From a virus (lineage: Duplodnaviria > Heunggongvirae > Uroviricota > Caudoviricetes), in IMG/VR virus record IMGVR_UViG_2778261161_000002: a DNA stretch of 64,000 nucleotides. One strand, given 5' to 3'. Positions within the stretch are counted from its first letter, which is position 1. Every line of letters begins with the position of its first letter. The notes beneath the pieces are model-generated. The model saw nothing but the letters and a program-made list of their open reading frames with translations, was not told the origin of the DNA and made no database searches. Shown here in pieces: positions 9,917-50,215 of this stretch. The position numbers were made by a program, and so were the translations under genes.

Positions 9917-10094
9917 CGGAATGTATGATCTGCATCATCGACTGAAGTCATCCATTGCTGAAATTTTTAGTTGATCTTCCATGTTTTCAGGCTTATATTC
10001 ATGCCGTCGTAGCAAATTCTGCGACCAGGTTTGACAGCCTGAATGTTAGTGCGGACAACCGCAGATTTCCGATATTGCGGTATTTTTGTGTCCG

Positions 10095-10215
10095 TAAACC
10101 GCGTTACGCCCGAATTATGGTGGGGCGTGATGGGGAGGCTTCGGCCTGCTGGTCTCACTAACGCCAGTCTGTCAACCCTGTCACGTCCTGCCACCTGTTT
10201 GACAGCGGGTAGCAG
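10095..10215 (+). ncRNA. c4-like antisense RNA region of an immI-type module
   Basis: GGTCTCACTAACGCC (10151-10165) is complementary to the direct repeats CCTGAATGTTAGTGCGG (10037-) and CCTGTTAGTGAGGCC (10224-); the latter overlaps the icd RBS; exact RNA ends unknown. Confidence 0.4.
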
Positions 10216-20869: not shown

Positions 20870-21982
20870 ATGAGTCAACACACTGATACTTCTAATCTGG
20901 AAATTATCTCGACAGCAATTGAAACGCTGCGCACACAAATCGCTCTTATACAGAAACGGAATCCGGGTGATGACCTGTCAAAGCGACTGCACGAGAGTGT
21001 CATTGCCACTACAGATAACCTGGTGGCGGAAATCAACAAGCTGCTTGATGATGGGGCAGTTGATTACAATAAGCTGGTGGATCAGTTTGAGGAATACCAA
21101 CAAGCTGTTAATGATGGCTTGATCCGTTTTTCACAAGTCACAGGCGTATCAGCGACAGTTGAAAGCCTGGGTGATGCAGTTAATCAATTTGCCGCGAATA
21201 TGCGTAATGAGATCGGCAATCTGGAAGCGCGTCTTGAACAGGCAAATACACTGCGTAAATCTGCCGAAGCCGATTTGAACCGTTACAAAAAAGACTATCC
21301 GCCCAGCCTGACAAAGCGGCTGGATGTTGCGGAGAAGGATAACCGCGCGCTGAAAAGAGAGCGCCGGGAACTAAAAGAGCGTTTAACCAAGCTCAATCAG
21401 CAATGCATTGATTATCAAGGCGAAGGCGTCACACTGCGTAAAAAGTTAGCTACAGCGCAGAGCATTATCGAAACATTAAAGCGAGAGTGCTCACAGCTTG
21501 GTCACGATCTGAACCGTGCTTGTGGCATGGGACAAAGACCAGAGACATTTCCACTCATGTATGATGGGCGGGATGCCATTGCCTACATCCATGAGTATCC
21601 GCACGGCCTGGTTGCGGAAACTGGGCAGCGTGGCGAAGCACTGCTGACGGCTAATTACCATCAACAAATCAGAACCAATCGCCTGTTAACGATGGATGTG
21701 ATCCCATCGGTATGGGGAACGCCGCTTTACTATCGCCTGCCGGGCTTCGAAAAGGACTGGAATACCGACATAGACGAATGTCTCGCAGATAAAATTATGG
21801 CGTACCTGGAGACGGATTTTCCGCGCTTATATCGCCGGATTATGGACTCTAAGGATGCGCCAATCGATGAATTAAAAATGCGTCCGGAGACGCTGGAGGC
21901 AATCAAGCAGACGGAGTTTGATACTGTATTCAGTGTGGCCTGCATTCCAAGCTGTTTCCATGAAAGCATCCCGTTCATGTAA
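20870..21982 (+). CDS. hypothetical coiled-coil protein
   Basis: 370 aa; long N-terminal coiled coil, Cys/His-containing C-terminus. Confidence 0.5.
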   Translation: MSQHTDTSNLEIISTAIETLRTQIALIQKRNPGDDLSKRLHESVIATTDNLVAEINKLLDDGAVDYNKLVDQFEEYQQAVNDGLIRFSQVTGVSATVESLGDAVNQFAANMRNEIGNLEARLEQANTLRKSAEADLNRYKKDYPPSLTKRLDVAEKDNRALKRERRELKERLTKLNQQCIDYQGEGVTLRKKLATAQSIIETLKRECSQLGHDLNRACGMGQRPETFPLMYDGRDAIAYIHEYPHGLVAETGQRGEALLTANYHQQIRTNRLLTMDVIPSVWGTPLYYRLPGFEKDWNTDIDECLADKIMAYLETDFPRLYRRIMDSKDAPIDELKMRPETLEAIKQTEFDTVFSVACIPSCFHESIPFM

Positions 21983-22078
21983 GGAGATCGTCGTCAGGAA
22001 ATCATTGACGCTTGCCGGGTATGGGCGAACGAATGGGATAAGAAGAATGGGGGGGTAGAAGATCTTTATGGGAAATAA

Positions 22079-22250
22079 TGTGTTAGAAATCTAAAATCAC
22101 AATTCGAATGTATTGATTGTGAAGATAACTTAACATAGAATTTTCCTTGCTGGTGGGCGGTACCCACGTTTCGCTTGCTGGGCTTGATAGTCACTTATTG
22201 GTTATTGTTCTCCCACCAGCATTTAACAAATTAAAGTGTTAGAAAAATAT
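22079..22250. promoter_or_regulatory. cluster of TGTTAGAAA-type motifs (sites E/F)
   Basis: TGTTAGAAATCTAAAATCACA at 22081 and TGTTAGAAAAA at 22238, plus TTAACATAGAA half-site. Confidence 0.35.
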
Positions 22251-23312
22251 GGTAATACAAGAGCACGCTTTGGCACCGTGCAGGCCAAAGTTCAGCAGGT
22301 TTAGTGCGGAAAGTGGTTTCAGAGAGAGCACTTTGCGGAGTAAACGACAATACATGTTGAGCCACGGAAGGTCTTTTTAAGGTGTTCATTGATGATGGTC
22401 CGGCAGAGAGTAACGGTACATGCTGTATCTAATCATCAATGCACATCTTCAACATTAAGGAGGCATAGGGATTTTTGTGGCGGTTACCTTTTGCCCTGAG
22501 TCTCCTTAATGTTGCGGTAATGCACCTATGCGGATGTGGCCTTGCATTGTGTCTTGAAAGAATGGGGTAAGGCCGGGGATATCCCCAGGGGGAGGCACCC
22601 CCGCTGCAACGAACAGCCACAGACGGCAGTCGAGTGATGGAAACGTGTAAAGACTTTAAACCTCGTTACGGCTGGCGTGGCAAACGCGACAACCGAGACA
22701 GAGCGGTGACGGGCGGAGAGAGTGCCGCATCAAGAAAGAAGCCGACTTGTGATCCCTTTCTGCGGGCATTTGAAAGTGAATCCAGCTCAGGCAGTCGGCT
22801 TCTTTCTTGTGTGAGATGTAGCGTATTTGCCCATCTTCGGGTGGGCTTTTTTAGGGTTTTCGTCATGGTTAGCGACTTTGCGGCGGTTTAGAAACCGACC
22901 ATTAAAGTAAATGCAAACGATGATCTGATGATGGTAGCGGCCTAAGAAGCCTGACGCCACGGGGTATGAGTCGTCCCCCGTCAAAAAATCGACCGCAGAG
23001 TGTCCCCGTCTGTGTATTAGGGAACGGGGAGGCATAACAGGCAAGGGCGCTGGTGTGATTAACCAGATGAATGAGAAGGGTCAGGTCTTTCTGGTCAGCG
23101 CCCTTACCTGTTACGTCCCTCCAGCGTAACAGCCATTGCTTGATGGCACCCTGGGAGAATTTCTTGTAACGGGTAAATCCCGTCATGCTGAAGGCGCTAA
23201 TCACGCTGGAAGCCAGGGTTATGCATCCCCTGTTACCGAATTGCAGCCAGGGCGCGATGCGCCGAAAAGCATACGGAGGTGGAAGCCCTCGCCGGAGACG
23301 TACCCGGCAAGT

Positions 23313-23389
23313 GATGGTGTAGCTCAGTAGGATAGAGCAGCAGCCTTCTAAGCTGTCGGTCGGTGGTTCGAATCCATCCACCATCGCCA
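23313..23389 (+). tRNA. tRNA-Arg (anticodon UCU)
   Basis: hand-folded cloverleaf: 7-bp acceptor GATGGTG/CACCATC, anticodon loop CTTCTAA, T-loop TTCGAAT, encoded CCA; resembles E. coli argU. Confidence 0.85.
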
Positions 23390-23391
23390 AT

Positions 23392-23464
23392 GCCGGTTTA
23401 GCTCAGTTGGTAGAGCGCCTGCCTTGTAAGCAGGATGTCAGCGGTTCGAGTCCGTTAACCGGCA
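23392..23464 (+). tRNA. tRNA-Thr (anticodon UGU)
   Basis: acceptor GCCGGTT/AACCGGC, anticodon loop CTTGTAA, T-loop TTCGAGT. Confidence 0.85.
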
Positions 23465-23476
23465 CCGACACAACAG

Positions 23477-23550
23477 GTAAGGGTATTTTGCGACGTCGGA
23501 GATCGCCGTGCTTGGCAGAGGGTTCGAATCCCTACGAAGTACCCTTACCG
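23477..23550 (+). other. tRNA-like remnant (non-canonical)
   Basis: GGTTCGAATCC T-loop motif inside a 10-bp stem GGTAAGGGTA/TACCCTTACC; no canonical cloverleaf. Confidence 0.3.
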
Positions 23551-23921
23551 TTGTGATGAAGTGCAGCTCTTTGAAGCAACCAGAAGATAAGCATCTGGCT
23601 TCACAACATAAACCGCATGAACGACCAATAAACGGTAGTCCGTATGGAGAACACCCCGTTGAGGAAGAGGCCTGGCCGGAACCGTAACCGGCACTACAAC
23701 GTTGAGAACACTGGCGTAACGGGGTCATATCCCAATCTATGAATAAATGTTGCGTTGCAGCGTGACAACCAGTGTTCTCAACATTGTGGTGAATGCGCAG
23801 GCTGATGCGCGAAAGACATTGCAGCTATTGCGGAAAAGAGCTGTTCGGCGGGGCAATTAAACGCCCGTGAGAGTCTGAAATAACCGCAAGCCGGAGATCA
23901 GCACCGGTCGCCACAATCAGC

Positions 23922-24008
23922 GGAGAGTAGGGGGCATGGTGCTCAAGCGGTCTTGAAAACCGTCCCATTGCGCAAGCGATGATGGTTCGATTCCATTACT
24001 CTCCGCCA
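23922..24008 (+). tRNA. tRNA-Ser (anticodon UGA), type II with long variable arm
   Basis: acceptor GGAGAGT/ACTCTCC, anticodon arm GGTCTTGAAAACC as in E. coli serT, T-loop TTCGATT, CCA encoded; D-arm atypical. Confidence 0.55.
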
Positions 24009-24168
24009 TCGCAACGTTAAGAGTATTTGGCTAATTAAGCGAATGCCGGAAGCAGAACCGGATCATCAAATGCGTACAGGCGTCATCGCCGCCCAGCCAG
24101 CCAAGTGCTCTTACCATTGCGGTGAATGCGGCTAAGCGCACGCGGAACAGTTAAAACAATCCTCCTTA

Positions 24169-24492
24169 GTGGTTAAGTCAAACATCCCGGCGTTAATTGT
24201 TAACTGGTTAACGTCACCTGGAGGCACCAGGCACCGCAATCTAATAAAGTTTCAAGCAATGGGGTTTTTGTTGTCAGACTTCAGATATAGATGGTTGTGG
24301 AAGGAGAGCCTGTACATAGTGCAGTTATTTCTTCCGCTATTTGTCTGCTTTGTCATGCTTCCTGAGCTGAAATACGCAATTTCAGACACTTTAAGCACTA
24401 TCGTTACTTTTGTGTTTTATCTTTACTTTGATTACTTATTGAGCACTAAAATCAATGAATTATCCGAGGAAATGCAAGGTGGCTGTAAGTGA
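24169..24492 (+). CDS. small hydrophobic protein in tRNA island (start uncertain, possibly 24259)
   Basis: AT-rich ORF with two hydrophobic helices. Confidence 0.3.
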   Translation: MVKSNIPALIVNWLTSPGGTRHRNLIKFQAMGFLLSDFRYRWLWKESLYIVQLFLPLFVCFVMLPELKYAISDTLSTIVTFVFYLYFDYLLSTKINELSEEMQGGCK

Positions 24493-24620
24493 TGGATTTT
24501 TGGGCGTTTGCCGATAAGAACCCTGGTTGGACATTTTTATTTTTGCTGGTGGTTGCATATGGGGTCGAGCAAGCGGCTAAAGCCTTACGCGGTTCTGGCA
24601 AAAAGCGTAAGCGGAATTAA
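24492..24620 (+). CDS. 42-aa membrane peptide with basic tail
   Basis: MDFWAFADKNPGWTFLFLLVVAYGVEQAAKALRGSGKKRKRN; TGATG overlap with upstream ORF; ends 10 nt before tRNA-Ile. Confidence 0.3.
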   Translation: MDFWAFADKNPGWTFLFLLVVAYGVEQAAKALRGSGKKRKRN

Positions 24621-24629
24621 CAGTAATCT

Positions 24630-24705
24630 GGCCCTTTAGCTCAGTGGTTAGAGCAGGCGACTCATAATCGCACGGTCACCGGTTCAAATCCGGTAGGGGC
24701 CACCA
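24630..24705 (+). tRNA. tRNA-Ile2 (anticodon CAU, ileX-like)
   Basis: near-identical to E. coli ileX over the D and anticodon arms; encoded CCA. Confidence 0.8.
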
Positions 24706-24759
24706 TATTTGGTTGTAACACGGCGTATGGCACATGCGTCGTTAGCGGTCTGGTGTAGC

Positions 24760-24779
24760 TGTTAGGTACCTTACTAACA
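24760..24779. promoter_or_regulatory. TGTTAGG...CTAACA palindromic motif (operator-like site G)
   Basis: TGTTAGGTACCTTACTAACA upstream of 25160 gene. Confidence 0.35.
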
Positions 24780-25159
24780 CTGCATGGGCACATCAGGTAG
24801 CCGGAATGTGCAAGTCACCGCTGGAGGGATAGCGGACTCAGGGACTCACCATCCTGGCGATTCGGTGTGACAGCCGGAATAGCACGGCGCACAACAGGAA
24901 AAGGCGTTTAATTAACGCGAGCGCCGTTTCCGTTGTGGTAATTGCGGCTATGCGCTCGTGACGAAGCCATTTTCATTCACTACGTTCTGATAAGTGACGT
25001 CGCCGGGAGTGGCTAACCTGGCAGGTGGAGGCACCACCGCCACAACTCCTCTCAATTCATCATATAGCCGCTCAGGCTGTACCTCTTAATTAATACGAAG
25101 TTACGACATCACTACCGGTACTTCCGGGGGATAGTCGCGCGTGTAAAAAAGGAGACGTT

Positions 25160-49927: not shown

Positions 49928-50094
49928 AATACTGACTGTTGCGCCCTGGCATTATCGTGGGGTATATTTCTACGGCACCTTAGAAAAACGGGTGCCGGGA
50001 TTGGAACCCCGGATAATGCAAAAGGCGACACAGACGCCGAAAGCGTCTTTTCTTGTGTCATGCCATCGCACAGCCATACGTAGCGTTTAGCTCA

Positions 50095-50215
50095 GAGATC
50101 AATGGTAGTGCTGGCTGGGCTGCCGAAAGGCAGGCCGGTTCCCTTTTGCGCCGGTAGTTCCAACCCAGTCAGTGCTACCGCCATTGAGATTGGAACCTCA
50201 CGCGGTAGCTCCTTA
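50095..50215 (+). ncRNA. second c4-like antisense RNA region (distinct specificity)
   Basis: GGTAGTTCCAACC (50152-) complementary to repeated GATTGGAACC elements at 50000 and 50189; same layout as 10030-10240 with different sequence. Confidence 0.35.

Follow-up and report, generated by a model that had tools for sequence, protein, structure and literature searches.

A tmRNA-like module in the structured leader of a predicted repressor-controlled accessory operon of a D6-type phage-plasmid

The DNA examined here is the 64,000-nucleotide (nt) stretch of the IMG/VR virus record IMGVR_UViG_2778261161_000002 (Caudoviricetes), referred to below as the window. Judged by its sequence, the window is a D6-type member of the P1-family phage-plasmids. 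Between a pmgS-like gene, which stops at position 21982, and a group of tRNA genes starting at 23313, in the order Arg(UCU), Thr, Ser(UGA) and a tRNA with a CAU anticodon, lies an interval of about 1.3 kb (21983-23312). An earlier reading of the letters alone (the original prediction) had described this interval as hairpin-dense non-coding DNA, possibly an uncharacterised RNA or a processed tRNA-operon leader. We identified within it a 186-nt module on the + strand (22856-23041), directly 3' of an intrinsic terminator, that resembles part of the transfer-messenger RNA (tmRNA). Phage D6 of Escherichia is 98.4% identical across the entire interval, and nothing is annotated in its record from the pmgS-like gene to the tRNAs. 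P1, P7, SJ46 and many others share about 91% identity over the last 487 nt (22826-23312). This 3' stretch keeps approximately 90% identity in 618 plasmid records while the adjoining genes are rearranged, and its counterpart in P1 is situated, according to the P1 annotation, between the C1-controlled ban promoter/operator (Pban/Op72) and trnA.

The 5' part of the module reads GUUUUCGUC...UUUGCGG. The resume codon GCA (22913-22915) is preceded by UAAAU, or by CAAAU, CAACU or CAAGU in other lineages, and the A at position -4 of the resume codon is kept across lineages. From this codon a short open reading frame (ORF; 22913-22945) encodes the tag ANDDLMMVAA and ends in TAA. Aligned homologues read ...AAAGUAAAU GCA AAC GAU GAU CUG AUG AUG GUA GCG GCC UAA, and at a relaxed threshold the program ARAGORN reports a 'Resume consensus sequence' together with the tag. 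No conserved in-frame start codon was found upstream of the tag in the window or in the T1-like copies read. We also considered whether the tag might be reached by read-through of UAG from a mini-ORF that lies 5' of it in the same frame; the ATG...TAG frame is present in the window and is not conserved in the T1-like copies. A helix surrounds the stop codon (22932-22935 pairing with 22956-22959), and two pseudoknots are found 3' of the tag. Pseudoknot a consists of stem 1 (22960-22964 / 22976-22980) and stem 2 (22970-22973 / 22990-22993), and pseudoknot b of stem 1 (22994-22998 / 23010-23014) and stem 2 (23004-23009 / 23024-23029).

A covariance model of the module, R1, was built from 15 sequences and yields 83 distinct sequences. 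It matches the window once, with 172 bits, and has a single match in each of 100 loci. Across the 83 sequences, 95.1% of the cells in the five helices are paired, compared with 83.2% in column shuffles (none of 500 reaches the observed value) and at most 49% when the partners are slid. Compensatory changes are found in 17 of the 22 pairs, and one pseudoknot stem, which is 99.7% paired, shows compensation in each of its four pairs. The tag is exactly ten codons long and followed by TAA or TGA in 81 of the 83 sequences, and the approximately 20 peptide variants are nearly all of the form AN[DE]x...[LMVA][AV]A. The entropy of the tag at codon positions 1, 2 and 3 is 0.58, 0.44 and 0.97, respectively, and the alanine at codon 10 may be GCC, GCG or GCU. 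The tag thus varies as a sequence under coding-type selection does. Within the first 57 nt of the module no covarying helix was found, RNAalifold giving only an invariant GCG/CGC pairing.

The sequence around the resume codon includes a 17-mer, AAAGTAAATGCAAACGA, that is identical in 47 bona fide one-piece tmRNA genes called by ARAGORN at default settings. In addition, R1 scores bona fide tmRNAs with up to 30 bits, in an alignment that extends through the tag into the first pseudoknot hairpin. Because of the shared 17-mer and this alignment, homology to tmRNA is well supported, and we consider it very probable that the module is a functional RNA derived from tmRNA.

Homologues were collected in three ways: plasmids were searched with BLAST for distant matches, IMG/VR was scanned with a 17-mer, and species-representative genomes were scanned for the tag pattern. 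The plasmid search returned SSU5-like plasmids of Klebsiella, and the tag-pattern scan returned Rosenbergiella, Rouxiella, Erwinia and Pantoea. A motif scan independent of the tag added more than 120 further IMG/VR contigs, and the GCA frame is exactly ten codons long in 122 of 126 modules. The module is found in P1 itself and in SSU5-like, T1-like, Felix O1-like, ViI-like and N4-like phages. A 441-nt query taken from a T1-like Klebsiella phage, covering the module together with its flanks, matched 783 phage records, most of the matches covering part of the module and many only its core. Among the matched groups are Drexlerviridae and related T1-like phages, Felixounavirus, Kolesnikvirus, Ackermannviridae, Schitoviridae, P1-like and SSU5-like elements. 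Among the matches listed, the annotation beneath the match is 'none' or 'hypothetical protein'. Within the papers that could be searched, including those on the tmRNA database, P1 and ViI-like phages, no description of the element was found. An exhaustive survey of tmRNA in RefSeq phages and plasmids reports ssrA only in mycobacteriophages and Bacillus phage G, along with a gene in phage DS6A that consists of the tRNA domain only (PMC4131195). The 2025 update of the tmRNA database adds nothing on phage elements such as this one (PMC11915505). The 47 one-piece tmRNA genes that share the 17-mer are complete and lie on IMG/VR viral contigs (among our loci L011-L128) that the 17-mer probe brought up as well, with tags such as ANDNVAFALAA and ANDNFAYEGYALAA.

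Several copies of the module have candidate expression signals of their own. By eye, a promoter of the form TTGACA-17-TAnnnT precedes it in the T1-like phage C1, the Felix O1-like phage wV8, phiEa21-4 and a Pantoea locus. Klebsiella plasmids have a weaker promoter match 5' of the module (TTTACT-17-TAAGAT), and a terminator follows it in the N4-like phage SP-058. We take these predicted elements as signs that the module is an expressed unit. In the E. coli P1-type plasmid NZ_CP037905.1 (locus L008, 1180-2500) and in locus L033, an IS200/IS605-type TnpB element is inserted in the module, right after GGTTTAG.

The breadth of this distribution bears on the idea that the DNA between the morphogenesis gene and the tRNAs is functionless debris, made of pseudogenised tRNA and tmRNA pieces and recombination scars. 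The arrays do contain tRNA-like fragments and T-arm hairpins without CCA ends, blocks are deleted in some lineages, and the TnpB insertion in the module is tolerated. However, unrelated phage families carry the module with its tag frame intact and with compensatory changes, often behind a promoter of its own, and the near-constant identity of the 3' 487 nt over the 618 plasmid records persists despite the rearrangement of their neighbours. Debris is therefore a very improbable explanation.

The tRNA-like domain of tmRNA is absent from the module, which has no acceptor stem, no G3-U70 pair, no T-arm and no CCA. Since all of these are lacking, charging with alanine is not possible. The Rfam family RF04321 (tmRNA_permuted) matches with 24.1 bits in the window and 34.1 bits in the Klebsiella SSU5-like plasmid L009, against a gathering score of 47. 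RF01850 (beta_tmRNA) reaches 8-19 bits against a gathering score of 84, and RF00023 matches only an isolated T-arm in L009. When its threshold is lowered to 85%, ARAGORN calls a 'permuted tmRNA' in which the resume consensus and the tag are correct and the proposed tRNA halves are unconvincing.

Three candidates for the missing part, or for another form of contact with tmRNA, were considered and rejected. The terminator hairpin might have been the closed acceptor stem of a permuted gene; there is no T-arm upstream, and the promoter-driven copies lack the hairpin. A tRNA-like element 3' of the module in wV8 (with G3-U70, A73 and CCA) might have been a conserved partner, and an ordinary tRNA-Leu occupies that place in phiEa21-4. 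Antisense pairing to host tmRNA was suggested by the host tag codons GACGAAAACUA, of which the invariant 5' UAGUUUUCGUC is the reverse complement. However, shuffled controls give duplex energies that are at least as good.

Two tRNA-like elements were observed near copies of the module. The first, at 23476-23549 of the window, is a long-stem hairpin that encloses a T-arm (AGGGTTCGAATCCCT) and a UUUUGCGACG motif. It has a closing stem of approximately 15 base pairs and no free CCA end, and no tRNA finder calls it. It also occurs in other phages (beside the module in L248 and L253, and at about 2296-2372 in L260), sometimes directly 5' of the module. The second is a discrete insert of approximately 150 nt, GGGTGATGG ... 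GCGGGTTCGATTCCCGC GTCACTC TCCCA, that distinguishes L009 (3252-3400) from L010, both SSU5-like plasmids of Klebsiella. This insert resembles a miniature tRNA-like domain, and its T-arm matches positions 347-363 of the Rfam tmRNA model (E = 0.0035).

A number of results weigh against the module being used as the template for a tag. At default settings ARAGORN makes no call in any module-bearing locus. In most lineages no T-arm with acceptor stem and CCA is found within 700 nt downstream of the module, and in the T1-like phage C1 the whole 46.7-kb genome contains no T-arm-like hairpin. In the promoter-driven copies (phage C1, wV8, phiEa21-4, a Pantoea locus and Klebsiella plasmids) the predicted start lies 4-12 nt before GUUUUCG, so that an acceptor strand would not fit. 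No significant complementarity was found by which the module could be tethered to ssrA of E. coli. To our knowledge a tag template without a tethered tRNA-like domain has no precedent. Two more general cautions concern the module. Some of the third-position variation in the tag may be structural because the tag partly overlaps the stop-codon helix. The module is also dispensable for plasmid maintenance, as the TnpB insertion splits it in some P1-type plasmids.

The main rival explanation is that the module is a decoy. It would mimic the mRNA-like and pseudoknot part of tmRNA and titrate S1, the second site of SmpB, or RNase R without ever being translated, and trans-translation in the host would be dampened or redirected during phage growth. 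The pseudoknots and the stop-codon helix are indeed the best-conserved structural features, and the tRNA-like domain is missing even where the phage genome has no T-arm elsewhere. There is also a parallel in mycobacteriophage DS6A, whose tmRNA consists of the tRNA domain only, a kind of molecule that inhibits tmRNA in E. coli (PMC4131195, PMC11915505). However, a mimic that acts by binding needs no intact frame, yet 81 of the 83 sequences keep the ten codons and the stop, with third-position variation and degron-like ends. The phage tags moreover do not follow the tag sequence of their own hosts. We consider a decoy rather unlikely. Use of the module as a tag template is favoured because the conservation of its frame, length, stop codon and degron-like ends is explained by translation alone, although we put it forward tentatively and at less than even chances. 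The wider proposal that a stand-alone tag-cassette RNA is present in at least six unrelated phage types, is loaded in trans, and replaces the degron of the host with that of the phage is doubtful at present.

The remainder of the interval is also structured. Every inverted repeat listed in the original prediction is present. AACATTAAGGAG/CTCCTTAATGTT lies inside the arms 22450-22470 / 22494-22514, CAGGCAAGGGCGCTGG/TCAGCGCCCTTACCTG inside the arms 23026-23052 / 23096-23122, and CTGTTACG/CGTAACAG at 23108-23115 / 23125-23132, with ACGGG-TAAAT-CCCGT at 23169-23183 and GGCGC-GAT-GCGCC at 23251-23263. The terminator that it noted is likewise there, as GCCCATC-TTCG-GGTGGGC (22829-22846) followed by T6. 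Two hairpins were absent from its list, a perfect 17-bp one (22731-22747 / 22793-22809) and another at 22148-22157 / 22212-22221. Folding energies were compared with those of dinucleotide shuffles in 150-nt windows of the + strand. The z-scores range from -2 to -3.4 over most of 22000-22600 and reach -4.1 at 23000-23149, compared with mostly +1 to -1.5 in the flanking coding sequence. Several hairpins carry compensatory changes, and G-U wobbles are found on the + strand only. Structure in the interval is thus conserved among relatives, one of the two points on which the original prediction had proposed to stand or fall. Outside the interval, the segment 23650-23849 between tRNA-Thr and tRNA-Ser also folds strongly on the + strand (z = -4.95 and -3.8) and contains a hairpin, ACAACGTTGAGAACACTGG ... 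CCAGTGTTCTCAACATTGTGG, and a cassette.

The suggestion that the interval holds no convincing ORF is borne out by the relatives, in which no ORF of 21983-23312 is conserved and the frames are broken. The possibility that the interval encodes small proteins was nonetheless considered for three kinds of frame. A 162-amino-acid ORF on the minus strand (22902-23390) matches the family phrog_27020 (E = 6.6e-48), the one PHROG match, whose function is not known. The antisense frame of the tmRNA-like module is open over at least 54 codons in about 40% of the family members. A 31-codon hydrophobic ORF, similar to a type I toxin (22475-22570), lies behind the AAGGAGG of hairpin I3 (described below), which holds a perfect Shine-Dalgarno sequence 11 nt 5' of the TTG codon. 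However, none of the six longest ORFs has a match in Pfam, the 162-amino-acid ORF is absent from P1, and indels of 1, 2 and 4 nt interrupt it and the other two frames among relatives. The antisense stretch is open for only 29-39 codons in many members. The hydrophobic ORF was rejected as a candidate, as it is frame-shifted in four relatives (L004, plasmid pMUB-MIN14-1; L005, an E. marmotae plasmid; L007, an E. fergusonii plasmid; and L091) and its conserved part shows no synonymous variation. Small proteins are a highly improbable explanation, and we conclude that the interval is structured and does not code for protein.

The first ~170 nt (21983-22147) do not belong to this RNA structure. They consist of the end of the flank of the upstream gene and of DNA that appears to carry an operator and a promoter. 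On the + strand a sigma-70-type promoter, TTGATT-17-TAGAAT (22113-22141), predicts a start near 22148. It is the sole promoter-like site that we found in 21800-24800, and it occupies the same position as Pban/Op72 in P1; no convincing promoter was found between the terminator and the tmRNA-like module in the window. Two operator-like boxes accompany it on the same strand. O1, AAATAATGTGTTAGAAATCTAAAAT (22073-22095), lies upstream of the -35 region and overlaps it, and O2, AATTAAAGTGTTAGAAAAATATG (22229-22251; direct repeat D4), lies 3' of the predicted start. Both contain the motif AAWGTGTTAGAAA, at 22077 and 22233, so that copies of it flank the promoter. The motif has six sites in the window, compared with 0.22 expected, and none of 100 shuffles reaches six. 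The core of O1 resembles the reverse complement of the P1 operator AAATTTATTAGAGCAAT as given in the P1 annotation, with the operator core TTAGAG.

The hexamers of this promoter are conserved in seven D6-type relatives. Like the two boxes, they have been kept in D6-type plasmids from E. coli, E. marmotae, E. fergusonii, Shigella and Salmonella, with spacers that vary. O1 is kept in all D6-type relatives, and in some an inverted partner stands beside the -35 hexamer. In a relative from S. dysenteriae, O2 lies within the spacer of CTAACA-17-TATAAT. O1 is probably the site of a D6-type C1 repressor, a prediction based on these likenesses, and O2 could act as a roadblock or belong, as operator, to a weak second promoter. 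One more AAWGTGTTAGAAA site lies upstream of the C4 immunity RNA, at the position that Op51 has in P1. The window has two separate C4 antisense-RNA loci (10113-10198 and 50098-50185), with upstream elements at 9993-10045 and 49975-50053, an a1/b1 target family at one locus and an isrK-like RNA at the other. The two C4 loci imply two immI-type immunity regions in the window.

From the putative 5' end of the transcript, the leader is a chain of separately folding modules on the + strand that are shuffled, deleted or swapped among relatives. The first is a 5' stem-loop, TGCTGGTGGG ... CCCACCAGCA (22148-22221; repeat I5), whose arms are invariant and whose interior is variable in 10 relatives. It could act as a 5' stabiliser. 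It is followed by a segment specific to the D6 lineage (22252-22449), which is absent from P1, occurs in 119 plasmid records at 83-99% identity, and has + strand z-scores of -2 to -3.4. The segment includes an imperfect hairpin, I2 (22376-22396 / 22432-22452), for which support is weak because variation in the 5' arm is not consistently compensated, the 3' arm being invariant. Next is the long hairpin I3, CAACATTAAGGAGGC ... GTCTCCTTAATGTTG (22450-22514), which shows two compensatory changes in L004 and L005: CAACATT/AATGTTG becomes CAACGTT/AACGTTG, and CAGGG/CCCTG becomes CAGAG/CTCTG.

The nearly invariant core of the leader is an 'AGGCA-loop' cassette, GTTGCGGTAATGCACC ... GGGGG-AGGCA-CCCCC ... 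GCTGCAAC (22513-22620). Together with I3 (22432-22610) it remains 90-97% identical even in plasmids with diverged flanks. Cassettes of this type, whose stems occur in the variants CTGG/CCAG and GGGGG/CCCCC, recur at 23786-23915 and 24100-24240 and, in T1-like phages, 3' of the tmRNA-like module. At 24118-24238 there is a sub-threshold match to the Rfam family STnc100 (39.4 bits against a gathering score of 47, E = 2e-6), which coincides with an AGGCA-loop cassette (GTTGCGGTGAATGCGG ... CTGGAGGCACCAG ... CCGCAAT).

The perfect 17-bp hairpin I4, CAAGAAAGAAGCCGACT / AGTCGGCTTCTTTCTTG (22731-22809), precedes the terminator. In an alignment read by eye, L004 and L006 show compensatory changes in I4 from A-T to T-A and from G-C to A-T, as well as a C-G pair that restores a mismatch. 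A U-G wobble is pairable on the + strand only. I4 is probably either a processing site or the body of a terminated small RNA. The intrinsic terminator, GCCCATC-UUCG-GGUGGGC followed by U6 (22829-22852), has seven pairs, five of them G-C. It is kept in P1 and in all D6-type relatives, in some instances as the compensated variant GCCCACC/GGTGGGT. Just upstream of it, P1 and four relatives have a block of approximately 100 nt, 'dicF-like' in the P1 annotation, that is deleted in the window. Neither the window nor P1 has a match to the Rfam family DicF, even at E up to 10.

Overlapping the 3' end of the tmRNA-like module is the long + strand hairpin I1 (23026-23122, z = -4.1). It is a member of a hairpin family of the form 'ACAACAGG-N-AAGRGC ... 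GCYCTT-N-CCGTTGTG', with conserved ends and variable interiors. In the loci fetched there are 176 distinct copies, approximately 80% of which have the same internal mismatch, and they flank tRNAs, cassettes and the tmRNA-like module. Such repeats might operate as DNA, with the inverted repeats (ACAAC.../...GTTGTG) serving as recombination sites or cassette boundaries, the tmRNA-like piece as cargo, and any RNA structure being secondary. Consistent with this, the repeat is nearly symmetric on both strands, its ends are conserved in all those copies while the interiors vary, and what lies between the repeats (tRNAs, the dicF-like block, the order of cassettes) differs in close relatives. However, compensatory changes and G-U wobbles preserve the pairing on the + strand only, as in P1 and L006, where I1 is kept through changes from G-C to G-U. 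The conserved asymmetric features, one mismatch and one bulged A, suggest recognition as RNA. No integrase or recombinase was found beside the arrays in the loci inspected, and homologous recombination at repeated RNA-processing hairpins would give equal shuffling. A role at the DNA level is improbable.

The tRNA cargo between 23313 and 24705 varies among the close relatives L001-L007. The pair tRNA-Arg(UCU) and tRNA-Thr(UGU) (23313-23466, + strand) are the first genes 3' of the leader in the window, and the first slot is tRNA-Asn(GUU) in D6, P1 and others. A tRNA-Tyr is inserted in two plasmids, and tRNA-Ser(UGA) is present or absent. Such variation suggests cassette-like exchange at the repeated hairpins. 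The tRNA-Ser(UGA) (23921-24005) appears to be an atypical long-arm tRNA; it scores 45.2 bits on the Rfam model for tRNA-Sec (gathering score 47), and the D6 record states that tRNAscan-SE could not call its amino acid.

The last part of the leader (23123-23312, + strand) is conserved in the P1 family, has a multi-helix fold that holds small hairpins of the original prediction, and abuts tRNA-Arg. It shares the ~90% identity found in the 618 plasmid records. The RNAalifold consensus for this part has 73 pairs, seven of them with compensatory changes, and many alternations between G-C and G-U on the + strand.

Dense predicted structure adjoining phage tRNAs is also what a single large RNA of the GOLLD or ROOL kind would present. 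However, an intrinsic terminator splits the interval, its first part is apparently promoter and operator DNA, and no long-range helices join the parts. The 5' 840 nt have no counterpart in P1, with which only the 3' part is shared, and the modules occur separately in other phages. The GOLLD and ROOL models have no match at the gathering score or at E up to 10. Rfam searches of the window and 18 relatives at the gathering score and at E up to 10 found no family at threshold in the interval; they returned tRNAs, C4 and isrK elsewhere in the window, and tmRNA-type families and STnc100 only below threshold. A single large RNA is the explanation to which we give the least credence. Of the two possibilities originally suggested, an uncharacterised RNA is thus right insofar as there is an unannotated tmRNA-like element, and not as one large RNA or a recognised Rfam family. 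A tRNA-operon leader is right in outline, given the homology of the 3' 487 nt to the P1 stretch from the ban promoter to trnA and the presence of a conserved predicted promoter with two operator-like boxes. We regard it as highly likely that 21983-23312 is a composite regulated leader, the untranslated leader of a repressor-controlled accessory operon that is equivalent to the P1 'ban operon' and has the order leader, tRNAs, tci genes and further genes.

We propose that in a lysogen a C1-type repressor bound at 22073-22095 and 22229-22251 would most likely shut the promoter at 22113-22141. Upon induction or infection, transcription would proceed rightwards through the chain of independently folding RNA modules. 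Part of it would end at 22829-22852, giving leader-derived RNAs, and read-through would produce the tmRNA-like module, the long hairpin, the folded 190-nt segment and the tRNAs. In P1, ban lies downstream of the shared terminator and is expressed from Pban, so that read-through is required there. The long hairpins and tRNAs would most likely be processing sites (for RNase III, RNase P and RNase E) that separate the modules. The module would be a descendant of tmRNA that has kept the resume codon, the tag, the stop-codon helix and two pseudoknots and has lost the whole tRNA-like domain. It may be decoded on ribosomes as a tag template, as the coding piece of a two-piece tmRNA is, so that ANDDLMMVAA would be added to stalled nascent chains. 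Host tmRNA-SmpB, or else a tRNA-like hairpin of the phage, would provide the alanyl-tRNA-like entry function in trans.

Further points count against parts of this proposal. We infer transcription, terminator read-through and processing, as well as the whole trans-translation step. Binding of a repressor to the boxes is predicted from their recurrence and their likeness to the P1 operator. The structures of 22252-22449 and 23123-23312 are moderately supported, because divergence in them is low. Taken together, a regulated leader that contains a tmRNA-derived module used as a tag template is a statement towards which we lean slightly.

If correct, the proposal describes a split or hijacked form of trans-translation without known precedent. 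The module family would imply either a previously unknown route by which rescued ribosomes receive a tag template or a new class of phage element that inhibits or modulates their rescue. The family accounts for 'gene-less' gaps beside phage tRNA clusters, and tmRNA finders that rely on the tRNA part miss this class. The module is present in textbook phages (P1, T1-like, Felix O1-like and ViI-like) and has gone unannotated. The analysis also supplies an anatomy for the leader of the D6/P1 accessory operon, with predicted operators, promoter, terminator and processing hairpins. As the module is small and resides in genetically tractable phages and plasmids, its function is directly testable.

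The closest relative of the leader as a whole is that of the P1 ban operon with its 'dicF-like region' (NC_005856). It lies at the same position, shares the terminator and the 460-nt stretch to the first tRNA, and has a C1-controlled promoter upstream, as we propose for the window. However, the promoter/operator region and the first 700 nt of the interval are unrelated to P1, and the upstream gene is pmgS-like in the window and dmt in P1. Structured RNAs and long hairpins are known from other phage transcripts with tRNAs, such as the species 1 and 2 RNAs of T4 and the RNase III sites in the early RNA of T7. The likeness of the leader to these is functional only.

By definition, tmRNA unites a tRNA part and an mRNA part in a single particle, and we know of no system that uses the mRNA part alone. 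The module shares several features with one-piece tmRNA (SsrA, RF00023): an alanine resume codon GCA after A-rich sequence that has A at -4, a tag of ten codons of the form AND...hydrophobic-Ala-Ala (ANDENYALAA in E. coli), a stop codon within a helix, and H-type pseudoknots 3' of the tag. Its 5' motifs UUCGNC ... UUUGCG ... AAACC, compared by eye, occur in the order of E. coli nucleotides ~16-37. However, the module is approximately 185 nt rather than ~360 nt in length and has two pseudoknots after the tag rather than three. The coding piece of two-piece (permuted) tmRNA (RF04321, RF01849, RF01850; Caulobacter type) also has its tag template apart from the tRNA-like half, and these families provide the best, sub-threshold, Rfam matches of the module. 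In known two-piece tmRNAs, however, the coding piece begins with the 5' strand of the acceptor stem and the acceptor piece is encoded just upstream, and the module has neither. The tmRNA of phage DS6A, with its tRNA-like domain only, is likewise a partial tmRNA carried by a phage (PMC4131195, PMC11915505). It represents the opposite half, in which the tRNA-like domain is kept and the tag is lost, whereas the module keeps the tag and pseudoknots and has lost the tRNA-like domain.

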